A stretch of 64,000 nt of DNA, from the IMG/VR virus record IMGVR_UViG_3300005329_000001. One strand, given 5' to 3'. Under the pieces are notes generated by a model. The model was not told where the DNA came from, made no database searches, and saw only the letters and a program-made list of their open reading frames with translations. Of this stretch, positions 38,836-56,898 are shown piece after piece. The first letter of the stretch is position 1, and each line of letters opens with the position of its first letter. The translations under genes and the position numbers were made by a program. The stretch is from a virus. Lineage: Duplodnaviria > Heunggongvirae > Uroviricota > Caudoviricetes.

Positions 38836-38836
38836 G

Positions 38837-39030: not shown

Positions 39031-39059
39031 TTGACGTCGGATCGTCTTCTGCCTACGCT
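39031..39059 (+). promoter_or_regulatory. Sigma70-like promoter TTGACG-N17-TACGCT upstream of the RNAP gene
   Basis: Near-consensus -35, exact 17-nt spacer and a TAnnnT -10. Confidence 0.6.
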
Positions 39060-39117
39060 GGAGGCACTTGGTCGGCCCGGAGATTGCCGTCAGGCAGAGG
39101 GCTGCAAGGAGATTATC

Positions 39118-42100
39118 GTGGCCGGTACCCCAGCAGAGACCTGGAAGTCCCTCCAAGAGCGTGTCGAGTCAGCAGTGAAGAGCTACTTCCCCTTCGAAGG
39201 AAGAGCGAAGAAGTTGGTTCTTCACAATCTCTCCTTCGATGATAGTGGCGCACCGAGAGATGACATCCGCTCTCAGGAGCAAGCGAAGGATCAGAAGAAG
39301 ACCTGGGGCGCGAACGTCTTCGCCGACGTGAGCCTGATCGACAAAGCCACGGGACATGAGCTCGATCGAACCAAGATCAAGGTCATGACTCTCCCCAAGC
39401 CCACCAACCGCTACAGCTACATCGTCGACGGATCCGAGTGGCAGGTGGATAGCCTCTGGCGCCTGCGTTCGGGCGTCTACGCCCACATCAAGCAGAACGG
39501 CGAAATGGAGACCGAGTTCAACCTCGCCAAGCCGTTCGCGGGTAAGCCTCGTATCAAGATCCCGTTCGATCCAGAGTCTCGCAAGTTTCAGTTCCAGTGG
39601 GGCACCTATCACCCTCCGCTCTACTCCGTTCTCAAGGTTCTCGGCGTTCAAGACGAGGATATGAAGAAGGCGTGGGGCGAGGACATCTACAAGGCCAATG
39701 TCCCGAAGCACCCGGAGAAGGACATTGAAGAGCTCTACGCGAAGATCACCAAGAACTCGAAGCAGCAACTGCAAGGCCTAACCTACGACCAGAAGGCCTC
39801 TGCCGTTGTTGCCGAGTTCCACAAGACGGGTTTGTTGCCAGAGATGACGAAGCTCGTCTTCGGCAAGCCGTTCGACCACGTCAACGGGGAAGCTTTGCTG
39901 CTGGGCTCGCAGCGGATTCTTGGAGTGACCAAGGGCGATATCCCACAGGACGATCGCAACTCACTCGTCTTCAAGACACTGCACGGAACGGACGACTTCC
40001 TGCACGAGCAGCTCACCAAGTCCAAGATGAAGCGGACCCTTGCTGGAAAAGTCGGCAACAACATCGACCGGCAGGATAAGGTTCGCGACATCATCTCCGG
40101 CGACCTCTTCAATCGCCCCATCAAGGAGTTCTTCACGAGCTCCATGCTCTCGAAGAACCCGGAGCAGGTGAACCCGCTCGAGATGATCTCGAATCATCGA
40201 GCGACGACGATCATGGCCGAGGAGGGCGGTATCAAGAAGGAGCAGTCGGTTACGCCCGACATGAAGCTCATCAACCCCTCGCACTTCGGCTATCTCGATC
40301 CGATCCACACGCCGGAGTCGGAGCGCACCGGTATCACTCTGCACTTGCCCATCGGCGTCAAGAAGAGGGGCAACGACCCCATCATGCAGGTCTATGATCT
40401 GAAGGCGAAGCAGTTCGCCAAGGTCACGCCGGCCGAGCTACACCGAGAGAACGTGCTGCTGCCAGATCAGGTCGTCATCAGGGACGGGCGCCCGCATCCG
40501 ATTGCGGACCTCGTGAAGATGAAGGACCCGATAACACACGAGATGCTGGAGAAGCCTTTCTCCGAGGCTCGCTACCTCGTTGTTCAGCCCTCGCAGCTCT
40601 ACGATGAGGCGACCAACCTCATCCCGTTCCTGCAGAACAACCAGGGCAACCGCACGATGACCGCGTCCCGCCAGGGCACGCAGGCCGTCTCTCTGCACAA
40701 TCGCGAGCAGCCTCTCGTTCAGGTTTTGGCAGGCGGGTCTCAGACCTGGGAGAAGCTCACCGGTCTCGACTGGTCCCACAATGCTCATCACGACGGCAAG
40801 GTGGTGGAGATCAAGACCAGCAAGGAGAACGGCCACGCTGAGGCTATCGTCATTCAGGACGCGGCCGGCAAGCGACACGAGGAGCAGATCTACAACCACT
40901 TCCCGCTCAACGACTCGAAGACCTTCATCCACTCGACGCCGCTTGTGAAGGTCGGCGATTCGGTGAAGAAGGGGCAGACCCTCGCCGACACCAACTTCAC
41001 ACGGCAGGGCTCTCTGTCCCTTGGAACGAACCTTCGCGTCGCGTATTTACCGTACAAGGGGTACAACTTCGAGGACGGCATCGTCATCTCCGACTCAGCA
41101 GCAAAGAAGCTGACGTCGGAGCACTTGCACCGTCGGACGCTCGAGACAGATCCCGAGAGGGACGAGATCTCGAAGTCGAGGTTCATCGCCTTCGCCAGCA
41201 CGATGTCAAAGAAGCTGACGAAGGACCAGATGTCCAAGATCGGGACGGACGGTCTGATTCGAGTCGGTCAGCGGGTCGAGCCGGGAGACATCCTCGTTGC
41301 AGCAGTGGGCAAGAAGGACTACGCCGGCGAGACTGGTCGGTTGATGAGTCGTCTGTCGAAGAAGGCCTTCAATCTCCAAGACCGAAGCGTGGTCTGGGAT
41401 TCCGACCACCCGGGTGAGGTGGTGAAGGTCGTCAAGCTCCCGAACAACAAGGGAGCCGTCGTTCACGTCAAGACGCTCGAGTCCGCCGAGGTCGGTGACA
41501 AGATCGTCGGCCGACACGGCAACAAGGCCATCATCACCCGCATCCTGCCCGACCACGAGATGCCTCGCATCGGTGGCGCAGATGGCCAGCACGTCCAGGT
41601 CCTCATGAACCCATCCGGCGTCCCGACCCGCATCAACCTCGGTCAGATGCTCGAGACAGCCGCCTCGAAGGTCGCCGAGAAGACGGGCAAGCCCTATGTC
41701 GTCACCAACTTCGCCGGGCCGCACGTCGACTACACCAGCAAGGTGAAAGAAGACTTGGCGAAGAATGGCATCAGCGATCAAGAAACGCTCTTCGATCCGA
41801 CCAACGGCAAGAAGCTCGGAGACGTACTGACGGGCAATCAGTACATCTTCAAGCTCAAGCACCAGGTCGAGAAGAAGCTCGCCGTCCGAAGCGGAGGTCG
41901 ACAGGGCGGTGGTTCCTACACCGTCGACCACGCTCCCAAGGGCACAGGTGCGGAGCACCCCGGCCAGGGCCTGGGGCAGCTCGAGTTCTACGCTCTGCTC
42001 GCTCACGGAGCGCGCCACAACCTTCGCGAGATGGCCACCTACAAGGCCGACCAGCACCTCGGGGACAATCTCGACGACATGAATCACACCGACTTCTGGG

Positions 42101-45100
42101 ATCGCGTCCGCACGGGCCAGCCGCTGCCGGCTCCTCGCCCGACGTTCGCGTACAAGAAGTTCGAGAACCTGCTCACCGGCCTCGGCGTCAACATCCAGAA
42201 GCAAGGCAACGAGCTCCAGCTCATGCCGTTGACTGACAAGGGCGTGCTCGCTCTCTCGCACGGCGAGATCAAAGACGCTGGTCGCATGCTCCGTGGCAAA
42301 GATGCCAAGGAGCTGGAGAAGGGCCTCTTCGACCCGAAGATCACCGGCGGCCTGCCGGATGACAAGGGCAAGGGACTCTTCTGGTCTCACATCAAGATGG
42401 CCGAGCCGGTTCCCAATCCGGTGTTCGTCGGCTCGAGCAAGTCGCAGCTCGGCCCGGCCGTCATCCTATCCGGTCTTCGGTATGAAGACTTCGAAGCGGT
42501 TGCGAAGGGCAAGAAGGCCCTGCCCAACGGCGAGACAGGTGGTATCGCAATCAACAATCTTCTCAAGAAGATCGACGTCAAGGCCGAGCTGAAGAAGACG
42601 CTCGCTGAGCTCCCGAAGCTGAAGAAGGACGCGCTCAACAAGGCCAACAAGAAGGCGCGCTACCTCATCGCTCTCGACAAGCTCAACATGAAGCCGCACG
42701 AAGCGTACATGATGAACTACCTGCCGGTGCTGCCGCCGGCGTTCCGGCCCATTGTTCCGATGCCGGATGGTTCACTGCGCTACGACGACATCAACCAGTA
42801 CTACCACGCCATCGGTCTCCTCAACGATCGTCTGAAGAACCCGGTCAAGGAGCTCGGCGGTGCCTCGGAGAGGAACGTCCGCGAGCAGCTCTACGACGCC
42901 ATGAGGGCCTACGCTGGCCTCGGTGGGCGTCCGGTCTACGAGTCGAACCGCCCGATGAAGGGCATCCTCGACGTCGTTGCTGGCGATCAGCCGAAGCAAG
43001 GCTACTTCCAGAAGCGGCTCATGAAGCGCCGGCAGGAGCTCTCCATGCGCTCCACCATCATCCCGGAGCCGGCCATGCACCTCGACTACGTGGGCCTACC
43101 GAAGGAAGCGGCGATGGAGCTCTACAAGCCTTTCGTCGTGCGAGAGCTGGGTCAGGTCGGCCTCAACCCGGTCAATGCGCTGAAGGCGGTGAAGGAGAAT
43201 AGGGACATCGCCTGGAAGGCGCTCGAGAAGGCGATGGACAAGCGCCCGGTCCTCCTCAAGCGAGACCCGGCTCTGCACAAGTTCTCGATCATGGCCTTCA
43301 AGCCGAAGATGGTCGAGGGCAAGGCCATCCAGATCCACCCGCTGGTCACCGCTGGCTACAACGCTGACTTCGACGGCGACACCATGTCCGTCTTCGTCCC
43401 GCTCACGGACGAGGCAGTCAAGGAGTCCCACAAGATGTTCCCGTCGAACAACCTCTTCAGCTCGACCAGCGGCGACATCATGTACCAGCCGACGCAGGAG
43501 TCACTGCTCGGTCTTCACCTTCTGACGAAGTGGGGCAAGGAGACTGGTAAGACATTTCCCAACTTCCTCGAAGCACAGAAGGCGAAGGACAGAGGTGCTC
43601 TTGGCATGAACGACGTCTTCACCATCGGTGGCAAGAAGACGACGCTCGGCCGCATGACAATCAATAGCTACTTCCCAGACGGCTTCAAGGCCAACGAGGA
43701 ACTTCTGCACGACTCGAAGTTCACGCTCAAGAAGAAGAACGTGAAGCAGCTCCTGGGTAACCTGGCCCGCCAGGACCCGAAGAGCTTCGCCCTCACCGTC
43801 GACAAGCTGAAGGACTTGGGTAACAACTACTCCTACGAAGCGGGGTTCTCCTTCGGTCTGAAGGACCTTGATGTTCAGAAGGGGCTGCGTGATCACATCC
43901 TCCACCCCTACGATGTCGAGGCGGGAAAGATCAGGTCCAGCAAGCTCTCGAAGGAAGAGAAGGACGCCAAGCTGGTGAAGATCTACTCGATGGCGACCGA
44001 TGAGCTCGAGAAGGAGCTCCTGCCGCACTTCGAGAAGACGGACAACAAGATCTACACGATGGTGTACTCCGGTGCTCGCGGCTCGACGCCGCAGTTCCGC
44101 CAGATCACCATGGCTCCGATGCTCATGAAGGACGGCGCTGGCGGCACCATCCCCACTCCGGTCAAGAAGAGCTATGCGGAGGGTCTCGACGTCGGTGACT
44201 ACTGGACGTCTCTCCACGGCGCCCGCATGGGTACCCTGCAGAAGGTCGAAGGTACCTCTGAGCCTGGAGCTCTCACCAAAGACGTTGCTAACGTCATGAT
44301 GCCGACGCTGATCGTCTCGAACGATTGCGGTACCAAGAACGGCATCACGATGAATGTGGCCGACGTGGAGATCCAGGATCGAGTTCTGGCCAAGGAAGCG
44401 AAAGTGGGTAAGCACACGCTCGCTCCTGGCACGATCATCACTCCAGAGGTGACGGCAACTCTGCAGAAGCACGGCGTCGACAAGATCATCGTGCGGTCTC
44501 CTCTGAAGTGCGCCCACGGGCAGGGCCTGTGCGCCAAGTGCTACGGACTCAGTGAGAACGGACACTTCCACGAAGTCGGCACCAACATCGGCGTGATCGC
44601 CGGACACGCTCTTGGTGAGCCAGCGACGCAGCTCGCCATGGACTCGTTCCACACCGGTGGCGTCGCGGCGTCTCGAGGCGCCGGTGCGGTCGACAAGTTC
44701 ACTCGACTGAACCAGCTTCTCAATGTCCCCAAGATCCTGTCGCACTCTGCTACCCTATCCACCATGGAAGGGACCGTGTCTCGGATCGAGCACGACAAGG
44801 CGACGAACGGTCACTACATCCACATCGGCGGGGAACGGCACTACGTCCCGGCCGTCAACAAGGTCACCGTCGCTGTGGGCGACAAAGTCTTCCCGGGCCA
44901 CGCGCTGTCGGACGGCCCCATCAATCCCCGCGAGCTCTTGCCGCTGACCGACATCCACAATGTGCAGAACTACGTCACGAACAGCCTACACAACGATGTG
45001 TACAAGGACGAGCACGTCAAGCGCCGCAACATCGAGACAGTAGTGCGCTCTCTGACCAACCTCGCTCGCGTCGAGGATCCGGGCGATTCGGCACACCTGC

Positions 45101-45387
45101 ACGGAGACCTCGTCCTTCGCACTGTGGTGGATGAGCACAACCGCAGCCTGAAGCCCGATGAGAAGCCGATCATCGCAAAGCCAGTTATTCGCTCGGCGGA
45201 GCAGGTCGCCCTCGACCAGCACGAAGACTGGATGGCGCGTCTCAACTTCGAGCGTTTGCGGCAGACCATTCTCGAGGGTGCGTCTCGAGGCTGGAAGAGC
45301 AACATCCACGGGCCCAACCCCGTTCCCGCCTATGTCTTCGGTGCGGAGTTCGGCAAGGGCACCAAAGAGAATCCGCACCACTACTAA
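39118..45387 (+). CDS. Single-chain DNA-directed RNA polymerase (fused beta-beta')
   Basis: Beta motifs: SHFGYLDPIHTPE, GYNFEDG, GDKIVGRHGNK, MNPSGVPTRINLGQ, GQLEFYALLAHGA. Beta' motifs: LPVLPPAFRP, LLKRDPALH, YNADFDGDTM (43357-43386), GEPATQLAMDSFHTGG. SD AAGGAG before GTG 39118. Confidence 0.97.
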   Translation: MAGTPAETWKSLQERVESAVKSYFPFEGRAKKLVLHNLSFDDSGAPRDDIRSQEQAKDQKKTWGANVFADVSLIDKATGHELDRTKIKVMTLPKPTNRYSYIVDGSEWQVDSLWRLRSGVYAHIKQNGEMETEFNLAKPFAGKPRIKIPFDPESRKFQFQWGTYHPPLYSVLKVLGVQDEDMKKAWGEDIYKANVPKHPEKDIEELYAKITKNSKQQLQGLTYDQKASAVVAEFHKTGLLPEMTKLVFGKPFDHVNGEALLLGSQRILGVTKGDIPQDDRNSLVFKTLHGTDDFLHEQLTKSKMKRTLAGKVGNNIDRQDKVRDIISGDLFNRPIKEFFTSSMLSKNPEQVNPLEMISNHRATTIMAEEGGIKKEQSVTPDMKLINPSHFGYLDPIHTPESERTGITLHLPIGVKKRGNDPIMQVYDLKAKQFAKVTPAELHRENVLLPDQVVIRDGRPHPIADLVKMKDPITHEMLEKPFSEARYLVVQPSQLYDEATNLIPFLQNNQGNRTMTASRQGTQAVSLHNREQPLVQVLAGGSQTWEKLTGLDWSHNAHHDGKVVEIKTSKENGHAEAIVIQDAAGKRHEEQIYNHFPLNDSKTFIHSTPLVKVGDSVKKGQTLADTNFTRQGSLSLGTNLRVAYLPYKGYNFEDGIVISDSAAKKLTSEHLHRRTLETDPERDEISKSRFIAFASTMSKKLTKDQMSKIGTDGLIRVGQRVEPGDILVAAVGKKDYAGETGRLMSRLSKKAFNLQDRSVVWDSDHPGEVVKVVKLPNNKGAVVHVKTLESAEVGDKIVGRHGNKAIITRILPDHEMPRIGGADGQHVQVLMNPSGVPTRINLGQMLETAASKVAEKTGKPYVVTNFAGPHVDYTSKVKEDLAKNGISDQETLFDPTNGKKLGDVLTGNQYIFKLKHQVEKKLAVRSGGRQGGGSYTVDHAPKGTGAEHPGQGLGQLEFYALLAHGARHNLREMATYKADQHLGDNLDDMNHTDFWDRVRTGQPLPAPRPTFAYKKFENLLTGLGVNIQKQGNELQLMPLTDKGVLALSHGEIKDAGRMLRGKDAKELEKGLFDPKITGGLPDDKGKGLFWSHIKMAEPVPNPVFVGSSKSQLGPAVILSGLRYEDFEAVAKGKKALPNGETGGIAINNLLKKIDVKAELKKTLAELPKLKKDALNKANKKARYLIALDKLNMKPHEAYMMNYLPVLPPAFRPIVPMPDGSLRYDDINQYYHAIGLLNDRLKNPVKELGGASERNVREQLYDAMRAYAGLGGRPVYESNRPMKGILDVVAGDQPKQGYFQKRLMKRRQELSMRSTIIPEPAMHLDYVGLPKEAAMELYKPFVVRELGQVGLNPVNALKAVKENRDIAWKALEKAMDKRPVLLKRDPALHKFSIMAFKPKMVEGKAIQIHPLVTAGYNADFDGDTMSVFVPLTDEAVKESHKMFPSNNLFSSTSGDIMYQPTQESLLGLHLLTKWGKETGKTFPNFLEAQKAKDRGALGMNDVFTIGGKKTTLGRMTINSYFPDGFKANEELLHDSKFTLKKKNVKQLLGNLARQDPKSFALTVDKLKDLGNNYSYEAGFSFGLKDLDVQKGLRDHILHPYDVEAGKIRSSKLSKEEKDAKLVKIYSMATDELEKELLPHFEKTDNKIYTMVYSGARGSTPQFRQITMAPMLMKDGAGGTIPTPVKKSYAEGLDVGDYWTSLHGARMGTLQKVEGTSEPGALTKDVANVMMPTLIVSNDCGTKNGITMNVADVEIQDRVLAKEAKVGKHTLAPGTIITPEVTATLQKHGVDKIIVRSPLKCAHGQGLCAKCYGLSENGHFHEVGTNIGVIAGHALGEPATQLAMDSFHTGGVAASRGAGAVDKFTRLNQLLNVPKILSHSATLSTMEGTVSRIEHDKATNGHYIHIGGERHYVPAVNKVTVAVGDKVFPGHALSDGPINPRELLPLTDIHNVQNYVTNSLHNDVYKDEHVKRRNIETVVRSLTNLARVEDPGDSAHLHGDLVLRTVVDEHNRSLKPDEKPIIAKPVIRSAEQVALDQHEDWMARLNFERLRQTILEGASRGWKSNIHGPNPVPAYVFGAEFGKGTKENPHHY

Positions 45388-45389: not shown

Positions 45390-46538
45390 ATGAGCAGACG
45401 CGCTGTAGACGCCTTCCCCAAGAAGCGCTCGTCCTCCACGGCGACGACGGATCTTCGCGACGTTTCCGTTTATCGGGGCCGTGTCGTCAACGTCAACATT
45501 CGGGACTACACGGTGGACACCCGAATGGAGGCTGCGCCCTATACGGTGAAGTTCGACATCCCCTTCATCTCTCCCTACGTGAATCAGAACCAGGGAGAGG
45601 GCATCAACTGGATGCCGGAAGTCGGGTCGGTTTGCTGGGTCTGTGAGCCTTCAGAAGACGGACGAGAGAGCTTCGTTCTTGGCTGGTCTGTGGTGGATGA
45701 GGGCGGCAGCTATCGTGGTGGGCGCTCTCTTCTCAATCCTGGAGACATCGAGCTCAAGACAAGAGACCTGAACTTCGTCACTCTCCGTCGAGGAGGGATC
45801 GTTCAGATCGGCTCTACTCCCATCTGCCAGCGCATCTTCCTACCCATTCGAAACGTGATGCAGGACTTCGCCGAGAACTACGAGCTCCACACCCCGGCTG
45901 GTGACCTCACATGGCAGGTGCAGAGGAAGGATGAAGATTCCGACGGGCACCAGAAGTGTCTGTACCAAATCGCCGCCAAAGAGTTCGCGGACGACTCCAA
46001 TGACAAGACGGTCGCCCTCCTCAAAATCGGTTCCCATGGCGACGGTGACAAGACTATCCTGACGCTGCAAACCCGCGATAAAGGTGGAGGAGACGTCAAG
46101 ATAGGGCTCACCTTCGACAAGGACGGCAACGTCAACTGGACCATGGAAAAGAACTACTCCTTGGTGCTCAACTCAGGTGACCTGACGCTCCAAGCGAAGC
46201 AGGGCAAAGTCTCGGTCTCGTCGAACAAGGCGATGTCGCTCGATAGCCAAGACTCGATGGATCTCCACAGCACAAAGGCGATGGGAATCAAGACGGACGA
46301 CGCGATGACGATCCAGGCCATGCAGAAGCTGGTGCTCAAGGGCACAGCGGGGATCGATATCGACTTGGCGCAATGGCCCGTCTTGCGCAACTCTCCTGAC
46401 TTCATCCAGTTCATCGCTGCAGTCGCTGCTCAGCTTGGAACTCCAGTGACGACGCCCTTCGGCACTCTCGTCGCTGCGAACCCTGGCATCCTCTCGATGA
46501 TTCCCAAAAACCACCAGAACCCGAAGGTGAAGGTCTAA
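45390..46538 (+). CDS. Baseplate central spike (gp5/gpV/VgrG-like) protein
   Basis: N-terminal OB-fold pattern (YRGRVVNV...WMPEVGSVCWV) and C-terminal 8-residue beta-helix periodicity (SMDLHSTK/AMGIKTDD/AMTIQAMQ). Confidence 0.65.
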   Translation: MSRRAVDAFPKKRSSSTATTDLRDVSVYRGRVVNVNIRDYTVDTRMEAAPYTVKFDIPFISPYVNQNQGEGINWMPEVGSVCWVCEPSEDGRESFVLGWSVVDEGGSYRGGRSLLNPGDIELKTRDLNFVTLRRGGIVQIGSTPICQRIFLPIRNVMQDFAENYELHTPAGDLTWQVQRKDEDSDGHQKCLYQIAAKEFADDSNDKTVALLKIGSHGDGDKTILTLQTRDKGGGDVKIGLTFDKDGNVNWTMEKNYSLVLNSGDLTLQAKQGKVSVSSNKAMSLDSQDSMDLHSTKAMGIKTDDAMTIQAMQKLVLKGTAGIDIDLAQWPVLRNSPDFIQFIAAVAAQLGTPVTTPFGTLVAANPGILSMIPKNHQNPKVKV

Positions 46539-46539
46539 C

Positions 46540-48558
46540 ATGAATCTCTTCCTCGATCAGGACTTCAAGCCGACCTTCGAGAAGGTGGCCATGCCGGTGA
46601 AGCTCGGTGACAACACCGAGAACTGGCAGCGGGAGATCGCATCGGAGATCTACAAGCAGCTCCCCTACCTGGCGGACTACTCGGTCAACGTGATGCTCGA
46701 TCGCGTGGATGCCCAGCGGGGCTACGCCTTCGGAGCTGCCGAAGTCACCAATCAGACGGATTCTCCTCTGCCTGATCAGCCGGAGAACTCGGTCAAGATC
46801 CCCATCATCGTCAAGGACCGGCTCATGCAGCCACTGGACGTGATGCTCGATGGCAACGAGGCTCTTCCTCTCAACGAACGCCGCCTGCGGGAGAAGCTCT
46901 TCCGCACGGCCGCCGTCGAGACGTCAACCCGCAAGCCCACCGATCAGGGCATGGTCGACCAGCTCTATCCGCCGATGCGTACCAATTACGGCTACGGCAA
47001 TGCCGTGGCGACTGGCGTTGGTGTTGGCGGCTTCGGCAAGCAGGCGTCAGCGAAGAAGCCCCTGTGCGAGGTGATTGCCTCGACCATCTCTGATCAACAG
47101 TACGAAGCCTTCCTCGAGAAGATCGCCTCCGACGAGGAGACCCGTCTTCTCTTCCTGAAGAACGCGTCGGTTCGGAAGATCTCGAACCGGATGGCGATGG
47201 TTCAGCACATGAGCGTCGAGAAGACGGCTTCGGCGCTGATCCACAGCATCAAGCCGACGGTCGTGCAGATCACCAAGCTCGCCTCGGGCAACTTCAAGGT
47301 GAAGTGGGCCAACGCCGGCGCCTTCGCTCCGCAGGAGATGCAGGCCTCGCCGGACCAGGCTGCCGCCATGGCTGGGCAGGACATGTCGAAAATGCAGCCA
47401 GGTCAGACCATGACGGTCACCACCCAGCGTGCTCAGAAGCAGGGCCTGGACGAGCCGGATGGGGCGCTCATCACTGAGTTCGGTGATTACGCTGTGAAGA
47501 ACGCGGACAGTGGCGAGACTCTGATGGGCACCGTGCTGCCTGTGGTCGACTTCCAGATGCAGCCACTTGAGTTCTTCGTCTTCACTGATGGCCACGGCGC
47601 CTATGGTGCTCAGGACGAGATCATCGGTGTGCGTCAGGAGGGACCTGGCGGCATGGCTCTCGAGGCGGCTCAAGGACAGCAGCCGCAGGGCGACGGCATT
47701 TTCGTCTACCACCCACAGGGTGGTGCCAAGCCATTCTCGACTCTTCCTCTCACCATCGAATCGACCTCGCAGGGCCCGGACGGGATGCTGCAGTACATGG
47801 TCAGCGACGTCTTCGGGGCGCAGATGACCCTCGTCCCCACTCCTGGTATCTCTGCATTCGAGCCGATGGGAGAGGGCGATATGTTCGCCATCCCGGACGA
47901 CATGCAGTGGGTGCCCCTGAGCGGAGAGCCGGTTCACCTGGCCAAGGGTGACACCCCGGACTCGGCGGCCGATGCCAAGAGCTTGCCGAACGAAGTGGCC
48001 GTCAAGTCGACGGGCCCAGGAGAGACGTCTCTCGAGGGCATGCCGGTCATGAAGGTTGCCCGAGACAACCGCTGGTTCTTGAAGACGGCGGAGGCAACGT
48101 TCCTGCTCTGCGCCATGGGCCTTACCCAGGACGAAGCGCAGGAGGTTATCAAGGAAGCGGAGCGTCGCCCCAATAAGCTGGTGAAGCTTGCAGGCCTGAA
48201 CCCCATCGTGCCGCTCGGCGACATCCACGCGAATGCAGAGAAGAAGGCTGCGGCGCTGCTCGAGCAATTCGATTACAGCTTCTGGCGCCGGGACTTGGTG
48301 AAGGAGGCGGCTGCGCTCGAGGACACCGAGACGGCCGACAAGATTCTCGCCATGAACTTCATCAACCCGGAGAACATCTCCATCTTCGCCAGCTACCTCC
48401 CCGACCTCGACACGACATCGACCAAGCTCGCCGAGATGCTGATCGCCTCACGTCTCGGCCTCAACCAGGTCCCGACTGGTGCCGCCGAGCGTGCCATGAA
48501 GAACATGGAAGAGGTGATCGGCGGCCTTCGCTCGCTCCAGCAGAAGGAGCTCGTCTAA
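46540..48558 (+). CDS. Large putative head/core protein with many K-x-A motifs
   Basis: FEKVAM, GKQASA, EKIASD, EKTASA, TKLASG, VKLAGL, EKKAAA and VKEAAA. Confidence 0.6.
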   Translation: MNLFLDQDFKPTFEKVAMPVKLGDNTENWQREIASEIYKQLPYLADYSVNVMLDRVDAQRGYAFGAAEVTNQTDSPLPDQPENSVKIPIIVKDRLMQPLDVMLDGNEALPLNERRLREKLFRTAAVETSTRKPTDQGMVDQLYPPMRTNYGYGNAVATGVGVGGFGKQASAKKPLCEVIASTISDQQYEAFLEKIASDEETRLLFLKNASVRKISNRMAMVQHMSVEKTASALIHSIKPTVVQITKLASGNFKVKWANAGAFAPQEMQASPDQAAAMAGQDMSKMQPGQTMTVTTQRAQKQGLDEPDGALITEFGDYAVKNADSGETLMGTVLPVVDFQMQPLEFFVFTDGHGAYGAQDEIIGVRQEGPGGMALEAAQGQQPQGDGIFVYHPQGGAKPFSTLPLTIESTSQGPDGMLQYMVSDVFGAQMTLVPTPGISAFEPMGEGDMFAIPDDMQWVPLSGEPVHLAKGDTPDSAADAKSLPNEVAVKSTGPGETSLEGMPVMKVARDNRWFLKTAEATFLLCAMGLTQDEAQEVIKEAERRPNKLVKLAGLNPIVPLGDIHANAEKKAAALLEQFDYSFWRRDLVKEAAALEDTETADKILAMNFINPENISIFASYLPDLDTTSTKLAEMLIASRLGLNQVPTGAAERAMKNMEEVIGGLRSLQQKELV

Positions 48559-48573
48559 CCCAGGAGGTCTCTC

Positions 48574-48687
48574 ATGAGTAAGCCGGATGCCGATCGTACG
48601 AAGGAAATGGACGACATCCAAGCAGAGATCCGAAAGGTCGTCGAGCGCATCGACGCTTCATCGAAGAAGAAGACCAAGGAGCCGTGA
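48574..48687 (+). CDS. 37-aa charged peptide (not in ORF track)
   Basis: MSKPDADRTKEMDDIQAEIRKVVERIDASSKKKTKEP; SD AGGAGG; GTGA coupling to the next gene. Confidence 0.6.
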   Translation: MSKPDADRTKEMDDIQAEIRKVVERIDASSKKKTKEP

Positions 48688-49517
48688 CGACACCTCTCTT
48701 CACCGCCTTCTCCGACGAGTTCCAGCAGATCCAGCGACTGAAGCTCGCGAGTCCGCTTGGTGTCGCAAAGTCGTGGTTGAAGGGGCAGTACGCACAGCTC
48801 GGCAACGCCGCGGCCCAGGCATCCCAAGGACACCAGTCCTTCAGCCCGATGCTTGGTCAGCCCGCTCCACCGATCGTCGGAACGATCACCAACTTCCTCG
48901 CCAACAAGCTGCCGACCCCAAAGAAGCCACCGGGGCCGGTCATCGAGGGAGCCAAGCGCCTTCTTAGCTCTAAGCCGGCGAAGACGATCATCCCCCTCAT
49001 CGATCAAACCAGCGAGTTCTTGAAGCTCGCACAGGTCGAGCCCTACCAACAGAAGACACAATACTCATGCTCAGCGGCGTGTCTGAAGGCCGTGCTCGAG
49101 CACTGGGGAGCCGATCGCTTTGCCGAGCACGAGATCATGTACGCCATCGGCGTGCGCGATCGCGGCGGTGCGGAGGTGGACGAGATCACCCGTGGAGCTC
49201 AGAAGCTCGGCTTCGACGCGTACGACAAGTGCTTCTCGTCCCTCGATGAGGCGAAGGCAATCACCGATCAGGGCATCCCGATCATTGCCGACTTCCAAAG
49301 CTTCAACAACCCTGGCAAGGGGCACTACGTCGTCATCACTCAGATCGACGACAATGTGGTCCATCTGATGGACCCCAACACCGATGGCAACCAGCGTGTT
49401 ATTACACGCGCTGAGTGTGAGCAGCGGTGGTGGGACAAGACCATGGCCCCGCCACACAACCTGATGGTGAAGTGGGGAGTGGTGGTCACCCCAAGGAGTG
49501 GCGATGGGACTCGGTGA
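48684..49517 (+). CDS. C39-family cysteine peptidase behind a K-x-A-bounded leader
   Basis: QQKTQYSCSAACL (Cys), GHYVV (His) and LMDP (Asp). Leader begins AFSDEF...KLAS, and EFLKLAQ directly precedes the domain. Confidence 0.85.
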   Translation: MTTPLFTAFSDEFQQIQRLKLASPLGVAKSWLKGQYAQLGNAAAQASQGHQSFSPMLGQPAPPIVGTITNFLANKLPTPKKPPGPVIEGAKRLLSSKPAKTIIPLIDQTSEFLKLAQVEPYQQKTQYSCSAACLKAVLEHWGADRFAEHEIMYAIGVRDRGGAEVDEITRGAQKLGFDAYDKCFSSLDEAKAITDQGIPIIADFQSFNNPGKGHYVVITQIDDNVVHLMDPNTDGNQRVITRAECEQRWWDKTMAPPHNLMVKWGVVVTPRSGDGTR

Positions 49518-49980
49518 CTTCATCAAGACTAACCCACGTGCCTTCCTCACCGGCGTTGGGGCAGTTGCTGGCGGTGCTGGCGGAGCCGTCCGTGGATTGA
49601 CGATGAAGTCCTGGCATGACCAGTGGCGAGATGTAACGCACCACTATGATGCCGAGCAGAGAAAGAAAAACGCGTGGAAGATGGGGCTCGCTGGCGGAAT
49701 CGCTGGCGGTCTCGTCGGGTACACAACTCCCGTTCATACAGTGCCGGCCTCAGCACTCCCCAAAGCAGTCCCGTCGGCCTTCAAAGGCGTAAAGTCGCAG
49801 AAGGACGTGAAGAAGCTCGTCCGCGAGTTCTCGCTCAAGCACCATCCAGATCGCGGCGGTGATGCCAAGAAGTATCGAGAGTTCATCGACGCCTACAACG
49901 CGTTCAAGAAGCATCCCAAGTTCCCGAAGACGGCCATGGTGGCCTTTGTGGACGAGATGCTCCACATCCTCAATCGATGA
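49498..49980 (+). CDS. Membrane-anchored J-domain (DnaJ-type) protein
   Basis: Two Gly-zipper segments, then VKKLVREFSLKHHPDRGGD...YREFIDAYNAF (HPD). C-terminal KTA-MVAFVDEMLHIL. Start may be 49504. Confidence 0.85.
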   Translation: MAMGLGDFIKTNPRAFLTGVGAVAGGAGGAVRGLTMKSWHDQWRDVTHHYDAEQRKKNAWKMGLAGGIAGGLVGYTTPVHTVPASALPKAVPSAFKGVKSQKDVKKLVREFSLKHHPDRGGDAKKYREFIDAYNAFKKHPKFPKTAMVAFVDEMLHILNR

Positions 49981-51434
49981 GTCGTCTCGCTACCAACCTC
50001 GGGAAGATCGCGGGCGTGGCAGGGCTACAGCCCCATCAGCAGCGTGTTGTCGATCGTATCCAGCAGCCTGACCAGCCGGGCTTGGTGGTGGCGCACGGTC
50101 TCGGTTCTGGAAAGACGAGAACTGCGATCGAGGCTCAGAAGGCTCTCAAGATGCCGTCGGACGTCATCGTTCCGGCAGCACTCCAGGCGAATTACCGCAA
50201 GGAGCAGAAGAAGTGGTTGGGCGGAGCCAAGCAGAAGGCTCATGTCCAGTCGATGCAGAACATCACGAGGAAGCGTCAGGCTCCGACGCAGCCCCTGATG
50301 ATCGTCGACGAGGCTCACCGTGCTCGTGAGCCTCAGACGCAGACCTACAAGACGCTGGCGAAGAACGAGGCCGAGAAGCGCCTGCTTCTGACCGGCAGTC
50401 CATTCTACAACCGCCCGTCTGACATTGCGCCACTCGTAGACCTCGCCTCTGGAGCGCCGTTGCTTCCGACGGACCCGGAGCGGTTCAATCAGAGGTTCAT
50501 TCGTCAGAAGAAGATTAGCCCTGGCATCATCAATCGACTCCGCGGCCTCAAGCCGGGTGTCGTTGAAGAGCTGAACCCCAAGCGCCAGGAAGAGCTTCAA
50601 GGCATCTTCGACAAGTGGGTCGACTATCACCCGTCTGCGAAGGAAGACTTCCCCGAGGTCAATCGTGAGGACGTCAAGGTGCCGATGGACCCGAAGCAGC
50701 TCGAGGTCTACGACACCATCCTGAAGAAGGCGCCACCTTGGGTGTCGGCCAAGATCCGCTCTCGTCTGCCTCCCAGCAAGCGGGAATCCCAGCAGCTCAA
50801 CGCCTTCTTGGGGGCCAGTCGGCAAATCGCCAACTCCACTGCTCCCTTTCAGGAGGACGTGAAGAAGGTCTATGAGCCCAAGCTGGACGAAGCCTTCTCT
50901 CGGTTGCAGCAAGAGCTTGCCGCGAACGAGAGGGCAAAGGCTGTCGTCTACTCCAACTACCTCGGCGCAGGCATCAATCCCTACGCCCAGAGGCTTCAAG
51001 AAGCTGGCATCCCCTACGGCGAGTTCACCGGTGAGATGCCGAAGTCGAAGAGGGACGAGCTCGTCAGGCAGTACAACGAGAACAAAATTCGCGCCCTCTT
51101 GCTCTCTTCGGCCGGTGGAGAAGGTCTCGATCTGCAGGGCACTCGACTCATCCAGATGCTAGAGCCTCACTGGAATGATGAGAAGTTGAAGCAGGTTGAG
51201 GGTCGTGGCATCCGTTACAAGAGCCACGCGATGCTTCCCCCAGAAGAGCGGAATGTGAAGGTCCAGCGGTTCTTGGCGACTCGCCGTCCAACCGGCGTTC
51301 TCGAGAAGCTGCGCCTCAAGAAGCCAGGTGGATCGGTCGACGAGTACCTTGCCGCCAGGGCCCAGGAAAAGGAAAACTTGATCCAACAATTCCGGGCCCT
51401 ACTTGAACAACAGCAGCAGCCTGCAGCACAATAG
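49977..51434 (+). CDS. SNF2-related SF2 helicase/ATPase resembling poxvirus D6/D11 (NPH-I)
   Basis: AHGLGSGKT, IVDEAH, LLTGSP, VVYSNY, GGEGLDL, EPHWN and QVEGRGIRYKSH. N-terminal GKIAG. Confidence 0.8.
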   Translation: MSRLATNLGKIAGVAGLQPHQQRVVDRIQQPDQPGLVVAHGLGSGKTRTAIEAQKALKMPSDVIVPAALQANYRKEQKKWLGGAKQKAHVQSMQNITRKRQAPTQPLMIVDEAHRAREPQTQTYKTLAKNEAEKRLLLTGSPFYNRPSDIAPLVDLASGAPLLPTDPERFNQRFIRQKKISPGIINRLRGLKPGVVEELNPKRQEELQGIFDKWVDYHPSAKEDFPEVNREDVKVPMDPKQLEVYDTILKKAPPWVSAKIRSRLPPSKRESQQLNAFLGASRQIANSTAPFQEDVKKVYEPKLDEAFSRLQQELAANERAKAVVYSNYLGAGINPYAQRLQEAGIPYGEFTGEMPKSKRDELVRQYNENKIRALLLSSAGGEGLDLQGTRLIQMLEPHWNDEKLKQVEGRGIRYKSHAMLPPEERNVKVQRFLATRRPTGVLEKLRLKKPGGSVDEYLAARAQEKENLIQQFRALLEQQQQPAAQ

Positions 51435-51439
51435 GCTCC

Positions 51440-52327
51440 ATGCCGATCCGTCATCCTTCAGAGAACTTCATCAAGTTCCTCATCACGACGACTGACCCGC
51501 GAATGCAGGATGACGCCATGGTCAACATGTGGGTGACCATGCTTGGGTTCCCTGAGACGCAGCCGAACTACCTTCAGTGGCTCAGGAACGAAGTCAACCA
51601 GAAGCTCCCGGCTCAGTTCACACCGCACAATCGGTTCCACCGCCCCAGTGTTCGCTTCATGCGACAGGAGGGGATCTACGGCCTCCACAACCCCGACGAA
51701 GCCAGCCATGAGGCGAGCAAGATCACCGTCCACCTTCGCGCCAGGCCACTGGTCGAAGAGCTGCTCCTCGGCCACCACCACTCCGTCACGATAGCTAAAA
51801 AAGTGAATGCCCGCCTCGAGGAGCACTTCACTGCTGATGGGATCGAGGCCTATCGTCACTACTACTGGAACGTGGATCTTCTCCGAGTCGACGAGTGGGC
51901 CATCCTCCTGCAGAACAGAGATGCGCAGCGCTCCAAGACGATGGCCATTCTGCAGGTGGGCCCGGCGATGGCGATGCATCAAGCCGGCTTCTCACAGGAG
52001 ATCGAGGCGAAGGCCATCATGCAGGAGATGCTCGAGGCCAGCTACTTCGACTTCCTCGAGTGGAAGGCCAAGCCGCAGTCGGAGGCGCGGACCAAGATGA
52101 TGGCGACCATCGTCAAGGCTACCGCCCTCCTCGACGAGCGCATGCAAGAAGGTACCTCGTTGGTCAAGGATTCACTCAAGAACTTCGAGAAGTTCCGCAT
52201 GGAGCATGCTCGCAAGAAGGTTCTGGATATGCGGTCTCTGGCTCCAGATGGTAACTTCACAGGGTCAGGGGCGAAGCTGCTCGAAGCACCGGATGAAGAG
52301 AAGGTTGAGAAGAAGGGGAACAAATGA
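51440..52327 (+). CDS. Hypothetical helical protein
   Basis: 295 aa ORF in the operon with typical codon usage; no motif recognised. Confidence 0.6.
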   Translation: MPIRHPSENFIKFLITTTDPRMQDDAMVNMWVTMLGFPETQPNYLQWLRNEVNQKLPAQFTPHNRFHRPSVRFMRQEGIYGLHNPDEASHEASKITVHLRARPLVEELLLGHHHSVTIAKKVNARLEEHFTADGIEAYRHYYWNVDLLRVDEWAILLQNRDAQRSKTMAILQVGPAMAMHQAGFSQEIEAKAIMQEMLEASYFDFLEWKAKPQSEARTKMMATIVKATALLDERMQEGTSLVKDSLKNFEKFRMEHARKKVLDMRSLAPDGNFTGSGAKLLEAPDEEKVEKKGNK

Positions 52328-52881
52328 CGACTCGTGCGGCGTTCGACGAGGCAAAGGACGCCATGGCTTCCATGGACGCCCTCCTCAAGAAGGGGCTCGG
52401 TAAGCCCGGAGTTCAACCACTCGCCGAATTTGTCGGCGGCGGATATGAGCAGGCGATCGAGTACACCCGCGTTGAGCGACCAAAGTACGTCGCCGAAGTC
52501 GGCAAGAGAGATGGGTGCTACATCTACCATTTCTGGCCCCGAACGACTGATCTCTTGCCGACCTTCGGCGACAAGCTGGGCGATGCGATGCTCGCCAGCT
52601 TCAAGTACCCGGAGCGGATAGCCGCGAAGCACGATGAGGTGTGGCGCTGCTTCCAAGGCGACGTAGGCACAACGACAGCTTCGACTCAGCCCCTGTGCCG
52701 CTACTGGGGGGAGGCTGGGGACTTCGCATCAGGGCAGTGCCCAGAGTGCGGCAGCGGCAACGTGGGAGTCTCGATGAGCTCCTGGGCAGTCCGCGTGACG
52801 GGCTATGCAGACAACCCGCTCGCTGACGATCTCGCCGCCAGCGTCTTCGACACCCTAGACCGACTTCTGGAGACCCCATGA
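52324..52881 (+). CDS. Hypothetical protein with CxxC motif
   Basis: ATGA coupling; CPECG. Confidence 0.6.
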   Translation: MTTRAAFDEAKDAMASMDALLKKGLGKPGVQPLAEFVGGGYEQAIEYTRVERPKYVAEVGKRDGCYIYHFWPRTTDLLPTFGDKLGDAMLASFKYPERIAAKHDEVWRCFQGDVGTTTASTQPLCRYWGEAGDFASGQCPECGSGNVGVSMSSWAVRVTGYADNPLADDLAASVFDTLDRLLETP

Positions 52882-53426
52882 GCTACCTCGAGCCGCGCAT
52901 GGATGGGTTCTACGACGAGTTTGAGAAGATCTCAGCTTATTCGAATAAGCGGCTGTTTCGGGATATCGCTCCTCTTATTGGAGGGGCTGGAGCTCTTACC
53001 GGTGCCCTGAGTACTCCATTTGGAAAAAAGACCGACGAGAAGAGCTATGCACTCCGTGCGGGGAAACGAGCACTCGTCGGAGGCGCTATCGGTACTGGTC
53101 TGTCTTTGGGAGGGTCAGCACTCGCAAAGATGGCGCACGAGCTCACCCAGAGCGAGCGCACCGACTTCGCTCAGCCCAAGAAAGAAGAAGAGGGTCACAA
53201 GGGCAAGTACCCCATTCCCGACAAGAAGCACTACGGGATCGCCCTGGGCTTCGCGAAGATGCACCACGATTCTGGCGCCCTGAAGGCCATCCATGCGAAG
53301 GGCAAGGCGATGGGCTACACAAAAGAGGCCGAGGGGTTCGGCTCGCCCAACATCTCCGACGCCGATGAGATGGCGAAGATGGCAGGCCGCAGCCGGCAGA
53401 GGGTCAGCCAGCTTTTTGGGAGATGA
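52878..53426 (+). CDS. Glycine-zipper virion protein with GFYDEFEKIS leader
   Basis: N-terminal DGFYDEFEKISA, two Gly-zipper segments, then AKMAH and TKEAE. Confidence 0.6.
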   Translation: MSYLEPRMDGFYDEFEKISAYSNKRLFRDIAPLIGGAGALTGALSTPFGKKTDEKSYALRAGKRALVGGAIGTGLSLGGSALAKMAHELTQSERTDFAQPKKEEEGHKGKYPIPDKKHYGIALGFAKMHHDSGALKAIHAKGKAMGYTKEAEGFGSPNISDADEMAKMAGRSRQRVSQLFGR

Positions 53427-54009: not shown

Positions 54010-54242
54010 TTCACCTCGGTGATCTTTCCGACGACGTGAGGAGGAATGAAGAGATCTCGGACGGCCTTCTCCGGGATGTTGATGATCAGCTCGCGATTGG
54101 CGGTGTTCGCAAGAGCCTTCTGGTAGTCTTCGGGTAGCTCGCCGCCTAGTGTGTCGACGGTGTACTCATCGACGGCAGCTTTCAACCACGGCACATCGCC
54201 ATCTTCGCAGCCCTCATTGGACCAAACTGTTCGAACTTGCAT
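54006..54242 (-). CDS. Hypothetical protein
   Basis: SD AGAGG; ATGA-type overlap with rnhB. Confidence 0.6.
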   Translation of the reverse strand: MQVRTVWSNEGCEDGDVPWLKAAVDEYTVDTLGGELPEDYQKALANTANRELIINIPEKAVRDLFIPPHVVGKITEVK

Positions 54243-54245
54243 TGG

Positions 54246-54578: not shown

Positions 54579-54606
54579 GGCAAAATCCTAGTGACTTTGT
54601 TAGGAT
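54578..54606 (+). promoter_or_regulatory. Weak sigma70-like promoter TGGCAA-N17-TAGGAT upstream of HNH-terL
   Basis: Same -10 hexamer as the 29.4 kb promoter with 17-nt spacing; -35 matches only 3 of 6. Confidence 0.35.
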
Positions 54607-54622: not shown

Positions 54623-55057
54623 GTGAACAAGATCCGCTACCCACGAAGAACTAAGACTTGTCCACGGTGCAAGAAAGACAAGCCGGCTACGGCTAAGTTC
54701 TTCTGTCCAGACAAGCGAGGCTATATTTGCTGGTGCAGGCGCTGCTCGGCCGACCGAGCGACTGAGTGGGGAAAGACCAATCATCGTCGACAAACGGATA
54801 CTCGATTCAAGAGACGCTACGGCCTCTCCATAGAAGAGTTTGATGCACTAGTCCTACAGCAGAACGGCAAATGCGCCATCTGCGGAGAGGCCCCAAAGGC
54901 CGTGAAGAGCAAACTTCAGGGATTCAACGTGGACCACGACCACAAGACGAAGAAAGTCCGGGGGCTGCTTTGCTTCGGGTGCAACACTGGAATCGGCTGC
55001 CTGAGGGATAACCCTTCCCGGCTGCGGTCTGCTGCCGACTACCTCGAGAGGATGTAA
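54623..55057 (+). CDS. Endonuclease VII-type HNH endonuclease with N-terminal Zn finger
   Basis: CPRCK...CRRC and YGLSIEEF...QNGKCAICG...VDHDH.T.KVRGLLCFGCNTGIG. Confidence 0.9.
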   Translation: MNKIRYPRRTKTCPRCKKDKPATAKFFCPDKRGYICWCRRCSADRATEWGKTNHRRQTDTRFKRRYGLSIEEFDALVLQQNGKCAICGEAPKAVKSKLQGFNVDHDHKTKKVRGLLCFGCNTGIGCLRDNPSRLRSAADYLERM

Positions 55058-56898
55058 TGGCTTACGAGATCGTGGAGGATCTCCACTCCTACCAACGCGA
55101 CCGAGAGCGTCGCGTAATGCTGCTGGATCATGAGGGTCTCTACTCTGGTCCCGAGTTCCCGGAAGAGTGGGATTACGAGCCGGATCCTGGCAACGAGTAC
55201 GGAGCACAGGACTTCAAGGACCTCCAGGATCTCGTCTCGGTGCTCCCTTCGGAGTTCACCGAATTCGCGATCATGATGCCGGACAAAGAGCATCAGACCT
55301 ACAAGAACTACTCCTTTGCCGAGCGCGAGTACCTCCGCCAGATCTACGACACCTCATCGAAGCGGACCCTGCTGAAGTGCGGTCGACAGGTCGAGAAGTC
55401 GACCATGCTCGGCAACAAGCTCCTTTCCTACTCCTGCATCGTCACTGCCCTCAACAGCCTCTACGTCTCGCCGACCAACCAACAATCGAAGGTTTTCTCG
55501 CAGGACCGTCTGAAGGAGCCGATCGAGACCAGTCCATTCTTGAAGAGCTGGACGACCACCAAGCTCTCGGACAACGTCTTCCTCAAGAAGTTCATCAACC
55601 GCTCCCAGATCACTCTCCGCTACGCCTTCATGAACGCCGACCGCTGCCGCGGCATCCCGGCGGACATCATCTGCATCGACGAGCTCCAGGACATCCTCAC
55701 CGACAACATCCCCGTTATCGAGCAGTGTGCTTCGCACTCCGTCATCAATATCGGCGGTGAGTCGCACAAGGGCGGTGTCTTCATCTTCTCTGGCACCCCC
55801 AAGAGCCTCGACAACACAATCGAGGCCTATTGGCAGCAGTACTCCACCCAGAACGAATGGGTGGTCCCCTGCCACGCCCACTCTATGTTTACGGGCGACG
55901 GCAAGATCACCAAGGTCCACTGGAACATCCTCACCGAGGACCACATCGGGGCAAAGAGCCTCATCTGCGACAAGTGCGGCGGCCCCATCGACGCCAAGGA
56001 TCCGATGGCGCAGTGGGCGTCTCTGAACCCAGACATCATCAATCAGATCCCCAAGCCCTATGAGGGCTTCCGCATCCCGCAGCTCATGGTGCCGTGGATT
56101 TCGCACGACGACATCATCCAGAACCTCAAGACCTACCCGCGCGATCGTTTCTACAATGAGGTGCTCGGCCTCTCGTACGATTCGGGCACTCGACCCCTCA
56201 CTCAGCAGGACTTGATCGACAACTGCTCGCAGTACCTCTCACTTGATCCAGCCTCTCTCGAGAAGTACAGGAACCACTTTGGCGGTTCGACACCCATCTA
56301 CGGCGGCATCGACTGGATGGGTGGCGGTGAGCACTCCTTCACCGTCTTCACGATGGGCGCCTATCTGGACGGCAAGTTCCAGGTCTTCTACTACCGTCGA
56401 TTTGAGGGGCGCGAGGCTGAGCCTCAGACGCAGATGGATGAGATCATCGAGACCATCCTCAAGTGGAACGTGCGTAGGATCGGGGTCGACTACGGCGGCG
56501 GCTTCTGGCCGAACGACAAGCTCACCAACCGCTTCGGCCTCAACCGCATCGTTAAGTACCAGTACTCGAATCCGGGCGAGAAGATTCGCTGGGAGGACGG
56601 ACTCAAGCGATTCCTCGTCAACCGTAGCGAAGTGATGAGCGACATCTTCAACGCCATCAAGCGGCGCAACGTCTTCCGCTTCCCGCAGTGGGACCAGTTC
56701 AAAGCGCCATTCGGCGGCGACTTCCTGAACATCTTCGCTGAGTACAACGAGCAGCGGCGCATGATCGAGTACAAGAAGTCGCCCAACGCCAGCGACGACT
56801 CGTTCCACTCCACCCTCTTGTGCTTCATCGTCTCGATGCTGGACTTCCCTCGTCCAGATATCGTGGCGCCGGCTATCACTCCCAGGGCGAATAGCTAA
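55057..56898 (+). CDS. terL: Terminase large subunit
   Basis: LLKCGRQVEKST (Walker A), ICIDELQD (Walker B), SGTPK (motif III), Zn-type insertion PCHAH...CDKC, nuclease GGIDW and DDSFHS. Confidence 0.85.
   Translation: MAYEIVEDLHSYQRDRERRVMLLDHEGLYSGPEFPEEWDYEPDPGNEYGAQDFKDLQDLVSVLPSEFTEFAIMMPDKEHQTYKNYSFAEREYLRQIYDTSSKRTLLKCGRQVEKSTMLGNKLLSYSCIVTALNSLYVSPTNQQSKVFSQDRLKEPIETSPFLKSWTTTKLSDNVFLKKFINRSQITLRYAFMNADRCRGIPADIICIDELQDILTDNIPVIEQCASHSVINIGGESHKGGVFIFSGTPKSLDNTIEAYWQQYSTQNEWVVPCHAHSMFTGDGKITKVHWNILTEDHIGAKSLICDKCGGPIDAKDPMAQWASLNPDIINQIPKPYEGFRIPQLMVPWISHDDIIQNLKTYPRDRFYNEVLGLSYDSGTRPLTQQDLIDNCSQYLSLDPASLEKYRNHFGGSTPIYGGIDWMGGGEHSFTVFTMGAYLDGKFQVFYYRRFEGREAEPQTQMDEIIETILKWNVRRIGVDYGGGFWPNDKLTNRFGLNRIVKYQYSNPGEKIRWEDGLKRFLVNRSEVMSDIFNAIKRRNVFRFPQWDQFKAPFGGDFLNIFAEYNEQRRMIEYKKSPNASDDSFHSTLLCFIVSMLDFPRPDIVAPAITPRANS

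Follow-up and report, generated by a model that had tools for sequence, protein, structure and literature searches.

A SNF2-Family Helicase in the Head Module of a Large Tailed Phage and Its Kinship with the D6/D11 Helicases of Poxviruses and Giant Viruses

Viruses that import their own RNA polymerase (RNAP) need helpers with which transcription can be started and stopped on DNA that is naked and newly arrived. Two SNF2 motors, D6 and D11, fill this role in poxviruses. Here, we describe a SNF2-family helicase gene of a tailed phage (IMG/VR record IMGVR_UViG_3300005329_000001), which was analyzed within a 64,000-nucleotide stretch, referred to as the window, of a viral record that is complete at 210,330 bp and has direct terminal repeats. 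The encoded protein belongs to a large, uncharacterized phage family that appears to be the closest relative of D6 and D11 and whose genes lie in head modules beside that of a virion RNAP. Its nearest non-phage relatives are the poxvirus and giant-virus helicases that serve a particle-packed RNAP. We tentatively favor the reading that the helicase is an optional, head-delivered translocase on double-stranded DNA that would assist the co-delivered RNAP on the incoming genome.

The helicase and its relation to D6 and D11

The open reading frame (ORF) reported in the initial annotation was recovered with exactly the same coordinates, strand and length (Table 1), and it overlaps the preceding gene, its ATG sharing bases with that gene's stop codon. 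Three Pfam families matched the product above their cut-offs: ResIII at residues 17-142 (33.7 bits), SNF2-rel_dom at residues 107-286 (50.8 bits; PF00176, cut-off 24.9 bits), and Helicase_C at residues 307-414 (56.1 bits). PHROG 62, "DNA helicase", was matched at 3.6e-48. The AlphaFold model (pLDDT 90.2) is that of a standard two-lobe SNF2 ATPase consisting of a 16-residue leader, a core that begins at residue 17, and a single long C-terminal helix, with the chain finishing approximately 60 residues past motif VI. The motifs singled out in the initial annotation, GGEGLDL, EPHWN (residues 396-400), and QVEGRGIRYKSH (motif VI, residues 406-417, nucleotides 51192-51227), were all located in the translation. 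Conservation was read from an alignment of 30 stand-alone relatives that are 37-85% identical. In addition to the invariant positions of motifs I, II, and V, the residues Q406, G409, R410, R413, S416, H417, L420, and R425 of the motif VI region are invariant in this alignment, and LTGSP (motif III) is invariant or nearly so. Judged by its motifs, the helicase is a complete, minimal, and catalytically intact-looking member of the SNF2 superfamily.

The likeness to the D6/D11 helicases of nucleocytoplasmic large DNA viruses (NCLDVs), which the initial annotation had proposed from the motifs, proved to be real by several measures. When the single sequence was searched with phmmer against the PDB, vaccinia NPH-I (D11) was matched with an E value of 2.5e-9 (helicase residues 344-438 against NPH-I residues 405-503), and the alignment continued beyond motif VI through GRxIRxxSHxxxPPExRxVxV, whereas the alignments to other SNF2 proteins ended earlier. 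A family profile of lobe 2 and the tail placed NPH-I first in the PDB with 57.9 bits, followed by matches at 44.7 and 40.5 bits. With the lobe 1 profile, Ino80, Sth1, and SsoRad54 led, and vaccinia VETF-s (D6) scored 45 bits. In BFVD, a library of predicted structures of viral proteins, the first match was a phage relative (37% identity), and ranks 2-9 (1e-30 to 4e-22) were all occupied by giant-virus proteins, including those of Gaeavirus (1e-30) and Marseillevirus (1e-26) annotated as "Early transcription factor 70 kDa subunit" and others annotated as "DEAD/SNF2-like helicase"; the remaining phage SNF2 proteins appeared only from 2e-21 or weaker.

Giant-virus bins were also recovered when IMG/VR was scanned with the helicase family alignment. 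A 777-amino acid (aa) protein from such a bin had NPH-I as its sole PDB match (3e-45) and scored 160 bits on the family hidden Markov model (HMM), 107 of them in lobe 2. Six generic SNF2 proteins from bacterial metagenome-assembled genomes (MAGs) scored 59-100 bits on the same model, and the three of them with a match split between the lobes reached at most 42 bits in lobe 2. One giant-virus bin (G028, contig 2) holds a full-length member of the phage helicase family itself (475-480 aa, 403 bits on the family HMM), on an AT-rich contig (25% GC) with genes for a lipid desaturase, a polyprenyl synthase, an NTP-transferase, and a DUF1796 protein. A large number of long helicases of 850-1,400 aa with a lobe 2 of the giant-virus type were also seen on IMG/VR and Bacteroidota MAG contigs that carry no giant-virus label (L119, L116, L118; L056-L086).

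A maximum-likelihood tree (LG+C20, quick search, SH-aLRT support only) was built from 51 rows, a subsample of 103 sequences plus six bacterial SNF2 outgroup sequences, with near-duplicates and many close family rows omitted. The rooted tree unites the phage family with the long giant-virus-type helicases (SH-aLRT 99) in a clade that leaves out five of the six bacterial outgroup rows as well as the Gordonia-phage and RM378 helicases; the sixth outgroup row, from a MAG (L218), sits within the joint clade. The giant-virus-type group (support 100) is nested next to a branch of helicases like that of Pseudanabaena phage PA-SR01 (support 97). This tree replaced an earlier one that had been built in the absence of bacterial outgroups, could not be rooted, and joined two long branches. 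Clustering with generic bacterial SNF2 proteins, one of the outcomes that would have spoken against the initial annotation, was not seen.

The grouping with D6/D11 to the exclusion of other SNF2 proteins is provisional. The best reading of these sequence comparisons is that the phage family is a sister of, or the stem for, the D6/D11 (VETF-s/NPH-I) helicases of giant viruses and poxviruses. The direction of descent hinges on the root and on long branches, and is treated here as a lead. It is possible, if somewhat doubtful, that one ancestral head-packaged SNF2 motor that traveled with a virion RNAP gave rise to VETF-s, NPH-I, and the phage family. If that common ancestry holds, with the giant-virus proteins inside the phage radiation, large tailed phages would be the source of a hallmark NCLDV transcription gene.

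The family comprises 1,024 cluster representatives at an E value of 1e-30 or better. A scan of prokaryotes covering one genome for each of 185,579 species returned only 21 loci, all in MAGs and many of them on 150-226-kb contigs that resemble binned phage genomes. The plasmid search gave matches at approximately 23% identity, and the defense models DrmD, ZorD, DpdE, and BrxH gave partial helicase matches of at most 36 bits, both of which are the level of generic SNF2 proteins. A tblastn search of phage records with the helicase returned seven matches, none of them in phiKZ-like or P1 phages.

Gene neighborhood and the phage RNA polymerase

The helicase is the sixth gene of a run, from 39031 to 53426, that opens with a fused beta-beta' RNAP, the single multisubunit match in the whole genome (Table 1). 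All genes of this run lie on the plus strand and either overlap or stand a few bases apart, the one exception being a gap of 126 nt. The initial annotation had placed the helicase in an operon with the RNAP. The shared strand and the tight spacing agree with this; in a promoter and terminator scan of 38300-55100, however, sites were no more common than in shuffled sequence, which leaves spacing as the sole basis for the term operon. A 186-kb contig (P0017) with a 69%-identical helicase keeps this gene order, its block consisting of the RNAP, proteins of 372, 668, and 63 aa, a C39 peptidase, a protein of 176 aa, the helicase, and a protein of 296 aa.

Table 1. Position of the helicase, its motifs, and the surrounding genes in the window
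Feature	Coordinates	Strand	Details
SNF2-family ATPase gene	49977..51434	+	485 aa (P0001); ORF list and translation, Pfam, AlphaFold
Leader motif G-K-I-A-G (K-x-A)	50001..50015	+	residues 9-13; candidate site for targeting or maturation
Walker A / motif I GLGSGKT	50097..50117	+	residues 41-47; G43, G45, K46 invariant in 30 members
Motif II DEAH	50307..50318	+	residues 111-114; D111, E112 invariant
Motif V GGEGLDL	51114..51134	+	residues 380-386; G383, D385 invariant; aligns to NPH-I GGEGISF
Motif VI QVEGRGIRYKSH plus LPPEERNV extension	51192..51257	+	NPH-I-like signature; aligns to NPH-I
Portal homologue (Arash gp204)	32997..35045	+	head-module marker; blastp 31% identity, E 1.5e-82, to Arash portal ORF
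Fused beta-beta' multisubunit-type RNAP	39031..45387	+	2118 aa; Pfam Rpb2_6, Rpb2_3, Rpb1_1 to Rpb1_5
Four genes between RNAP and helicase	45390..49980	+	382 aa (weak DUF2345), 672 aa, 277 aa (C39 peptidase), 160 aa (Gly-zipper/J-like)
Three genes 3' of helicase	51440..53426	+	295, 185, 182 aa; no family match
Terminase large subunit	55057..56898	+	PHROG 675, E 1.4e-60; Pfam GpA_ATPase
Head-protease-like protein with InPase domain	60044..62449	+	homologue of Arash virion protein gp222

Salmonella phage Arash, a cultured member of the family in which the proposals made here can be tested directly, encodes a helicase, gp217, that is 38% identical over 93% of the length and scores 511 bits on the family HMM. 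The portal, the RNAP, the helicase, gp220, and the protease gp222 are collinear between the window and Arash, and in both phages the helicase gene lies between the portal gene on one side and the genes for terminase, protease, and capsid on the other. The two differ in that the Arash RNAP is split (gp206 and gp216) and the helicase gene stands immediately 3' of gp216, the gene for the C-terminal part of beta', whereas the RNAP of the window is one chain and four genes separate it from the helicase.

In the records that carry the helicase, the RNAP family PF00562 was found in 26 of 32 further records and in four of the five records of the first set. All nine helicase-bearing phage records of at least 90% completeness contain the RNAP, as does the genome of the window. 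The distance between the two genes is at most 13 kb in 14 of 29 records. A complex prediction of helicase residues 17-485 with the C-terminal 529 residues of the RNAP gave a score of 0.00 and was counted neither way. In this phage group (records G003, G033, G008, G017, and G024, among others), the RNAP gene takes the form of a single chain of approximately 2,000-2,200 aa, of open frames of 2,842-3,031 aa, or of split genes (1,257 + 576, 1,136 + 614, and, in Arash, 1,525 + 628). The Rpb2_6 match is broken up in several records, which hints at insertions.

The initial annotation had also suggested that the helicase replaces sigma-type promoter opening. Such a replacement is unlikely, given that a sigma-like protein is already encoded in the genome, a 328-aa product (G000:C1:32392-33378, outside the window) that matched Sigma70_r3 with 29.8 bits, over the cut-off, together with a weak region 2 match and a C-terminal helix-turn-helix; its gene lies just upstream of a 2,270-aa ORF. 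Arash virions likewise contain a sigma factor (PMC10585845). Among the minor observations in the neighborhood, the product of 60044-62449 (801 aa) matched a head-maturation-protease PHROG with its N-terminal part and is 40% identical to gp222, and its InPase domain (PF18823, 105 bits) is the same domain that is fused to close relatives of the helicase. A second Helicase_C match (23.7 bits) was found in the window gene at 27342-28730 on the minus strand, presumably part of the replication module.

Evidence for delivery in the virion

Four indirect lines, namely the Arash proteome, the position in the head module, the fusions, and the leader, suggest that the helicase is likely delivered in the virion. 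In purified Arash virions, gp217 was detected with 38 unique peptides (1,148 spectra), a level comparable to that of the RNAP subunit gp216 with 40 unique peptides (1,210 spectra), and was listed as a "DNA helicase" with no further comment (PMC10585845). By analogy with this 38%-identical homologue, the protein would also be packaged in the phage of the window.

The leader contains the GKIAG site that the initial annotation had placed N-terminal to the domain. As a candidate P-loop this site was rejected, the Walker A motif being GLGSGKT; as a K-x-A leader it is conserved, in stand-alone and in fused forms of the protein. K-x-A stands upstream of LxPHQQ in most family members. The strict motif [ED]-hydrophobic-x-K-hydrophobic-[AGS] lies in the N-terminal 40 aa in 57 of the 143 stand-alone homologues, compared with one of 1,566 internal windows, and K-x-[AGS] lies just ahead of the core in 34 of 54 fused forms. 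The loose pattern K-[ILVMT]-A showed no N-terminal enrichment across the genome (22 observed, 18.5 expected), and the case for the leader is that of the stricter motif and of its conservation throughout the family. A similar tag, F/L-x-x-E-L-x-K-I-A, is found at residues 12-19 in each of four unrelated proteins from this genome, including those encoded at 8924-9496 and 32388-32996 of the window and at G000:31349-32175, and homologues of the helicase have ELEKIA at the same place. The shared tag may be a capsid-targeting signal or a protease site, in which case cleavage would occur at K-x-A.

Relatives that are 54-62% identical in the core are embedded in proteins of 1,012-1,682 aa. Their fusion partners are InPase, 2H-SAK, LigD 3'-phosphoesterase, C39 and C92 peptidases, GNAT, Lar, DUF5661, and inteins, and a 41%-identical relative of 1,806 aa carries NUDIX. 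Among the best 150 of the 50%-cluster representatives, 122 exceed 560 aa. Such a domain repertoire is that of the "polyvalent proteins", which are thought to be injected along with the DNA (PMC5512222). Two of these partners also occur in unfused form in the window, namely C39 at 48684-49517 and the InPase of the head-protease-like protein. In two relatives (P0151 and P0154), intein or Hint and LAGLIDADG domains lie upstream of or within the helicase region.

Possible functions and comparison with known systems

In the mechanism that we tentatively favor, the helicase would be made late and loaded into the head with the phage RNAP and other cargo, with the K-x-A leader possibly serving as a targeting or processing signal, and would then be ejected together with the DNA. 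Once inside, it would track along the incoming genome at the expense of ATP and help the co-delivered RNAP, either by clearing bound proteins or by the release or recycling of polymerase that has stalled or is terminating, in the manner of NPH-I and RapA. Should the motor indeed help the phage RNAP in this way, it would form a mechanistic and evolutionary bridge between the early transcription of phages and that of giant viruses. Should the common ancestry also be true, Arash-like phages would provide a tractable bacterial model of an RNAP and a SNF2 motor in the same particle.

The comparison with NPH-I and the giant-virus D6/D11 proteins shows both likenesses and differences. All share the SNF2 core and, in lobe 2, GGEG-x-D/S, WN-x4-Q, and GRxxRxxSH followed by a PPExRxV strand, and all occur in viruses with a multisubunit RNAP. 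The presence of NPH-I in virions is well established, and its C-terminal domain is known to bind Rap94. NPH-I is seen in the structures of the complete vaccinia RNAP (6rfl and 8c8h), and the phage homologue gp217 was found in virions by mass spectrometry. The D6/D11 proteins are, however, 631-790 aa long compared with 485 aa for the phage protein, which has neither the C-terminal domain of NPH-I nor the lobe 1 insertions and whose lobe 1 scores higher against Ino80 and Sth1 than against the poxvirus proteins. Unlike D6 and D11, the phage helicase is dispensable in many sister phages, and no partner of the Rap94 or VETF-large type is known for it. The D6/D11 proteins act in early transcription, in promoter binding together with VETF-L and in termination and release of the transcript; for the phage helicase, the phyletic pattern speaks against any obligatory function of this kind.

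Two further SNF2 ATPases have been connected with RNAP. RapA (HepA) also acts on RNAP, in recycling, and differs in having large N-terminal RNAP-binding domains, whereas the core of the window helicase begins almost at its N-terminus; RapA is not among the PDB sequence matches listed for the helicase. In phiKZ-like (group 1) jumbo phages, a Rad25-like SNF2 ATPase tracks the phage multisubunit RNAP genes in its distribution and neighborhood and has been proposed to be RapA-like (Iyer et al. 2021, PMC7824862). This is the same concept applied to a protein of another family; phiKZ-like phages are absent from the tblastn matches noted above. Both the idea of an RNAP-linked phage SNF2 protein (PMC7824862) and that of injected SNF2 modules (PMC5512222) are thus already known. 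The literature search returned no paper linking a phage family to NPH-I or D6, an absence that is no proof of novelty.

Foldseek and VIA-align against the PDB place ISW1, CSB, and INO80 above NPH-I (for the model, INO80 Z 29.6 with a root-mean-square deviation of 3.3 over 397 residues, CSB Z 26.1, and vaccinia NPH-I Z 23.3 over 409 residues). NPH-I is therefore singled out only by the sequence profiles, by the viral library, and by the tree, and not by comparison of the whole fold. A number of observations weigh against a role as a helper of the RNAP. The Rap94-binding domain of NPH-I has no counterpart, as only helicase Pfam families were found in the phage protein and the alignment ends at residue 504 of the 631 residues of NPH-I. 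The Arash list comprises 116 proteins that include obvious non-structural enzymes, which indicates a permissive preparation (PMC10585845). The fusion partners are counter-defense and nucleotide-signal enzymes, with no transcription factors among them. In approximately half of the records the helicase gene lies 16-130 kb from that of the RNAP, and the forward co-occurrence of the two may reflect shared ancestry alone.

The reverse test belongs with these observations. A search with the single RNAP protein had given three loci only, and an alignment-based search was used instead, by which 24 records were retrieved through the RNAP beta core (45-65% identical). The helicase was present in five of the 24, and in three of the nine that are at least 90% complete; the other six near-complete relatives had no helicase even at an E value of 0.01. 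Conversely, PA-SR01, a complete 137-kb cyanophage isolate, has the helicase in its structural module and showed no Rpb1, Rpb2, or T7-type polymerase, and two incomplete helicase-bearing records (G016 and G031) show no RNAP either. The PA-SR01 protein (QIW88461) has 598 aa with an N-terminal extension of approximately 148 aa, and its gene lies beside the major capsid gene. The functional coupling to the RNAP thus comes out looser than the initial annotation had proposed: co-occurrence is high in the forward direction and the gene block is conserved, but co-occurrence fails in the reverse direction and in PA-SR01. The helicase is largely restricted to a clade that owns this RNAP, whereas the RNAP also operates in phages that lack the helicase, which makes the latter an accessory gene. 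As a helper it would be optional, and neither a core transcription factor nor an RNAP subunit.

The main alternative, which we consider rather unlikely, is that the protein is an injected, stand-alone polyvalent SNF2 module that guards the genome by displacing or stalling restriction and other DNA-targeting defense complexes independently of the RNAP, following the logic of phage P1 DarB minus the methylase. DarB is the prototype of the SNF2 modules described in injected polyvalent proteins (Iyer et al. 2017, PMC5512222), which are SNF2-clade ATPases that arrive with the invading DNA, and the close relatives of the window helicase are themselves modules of multidomain proteins of the polyvalent type, a point that the initial annotation had not foreseen. 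A counter-defense function accounts better for these fusion partners and the size of the best cluster representatives, for the patchy spread among RNAP-bearing relatives, as expected for an arms-race gene, and for PA-SR01. It fails on the kinship with transcription helicases, as the closest characterized homologues, NPH-I and VETF-s, function in transcription, and on the adjacency of the helicase and RNAP genes in Arash and in the window. In addition, the window helicase differs from DarB in standing alone, and its similarity to the polyvalent proteins of P1 or plasmids does not exceed the generic 23% identity. The adenine methylase that defines DarB was absent from all 14 fused relatives scanned and from the neighbors of the helicase in the window, the regions in which it was sought. 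If the motor protects the incoming DNA, it would represent a new, methylase-free version of the DarB strategy. Assistance to the RNAP and protection of the genome need not be mutually exclusive, and with either function the patchy distribution marks the helicase as an accessory that stands outside the core phage transcription machine.

It is improbable that the protein is a non-packaged replication or recombination helicase that carries out UvsW-like branch migration or fork remodeling and lies in a late operon only incidentally. Iyer et al. (2021, PMC7824862) have suggested that, in recombination-dependent replication, the SNF2 helicases of jumbo phages may stand in for UvsW, and in one contig (P0069) the helicase gene adjoins an opposite-strand block with DNA polymerase A, RecA-like, and thymidylate genes. 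The abundance of the homologue in Arash virions, the placement in a run of head and cargo genes, the conserved leader common to unrelated cargo-like proteins, and the fusions to effector domains all argue against such a function. Finally, it is highly improbable that the translocase, once ejected, is held at the entry channel and draws the 210-kb genome inward: SNF2 enzymes do translocate on double-stranded DNA with force (PMC5512222), and the neighboring genes include those for a Gly-zipper membrane-type protein and a spike-like DUF2345 protein, but the 485-aa protein has no membrane or channel-binding domain by Pfam or in the model, and it is missing from most sister phages of equal genome size, which still must import their DNA.

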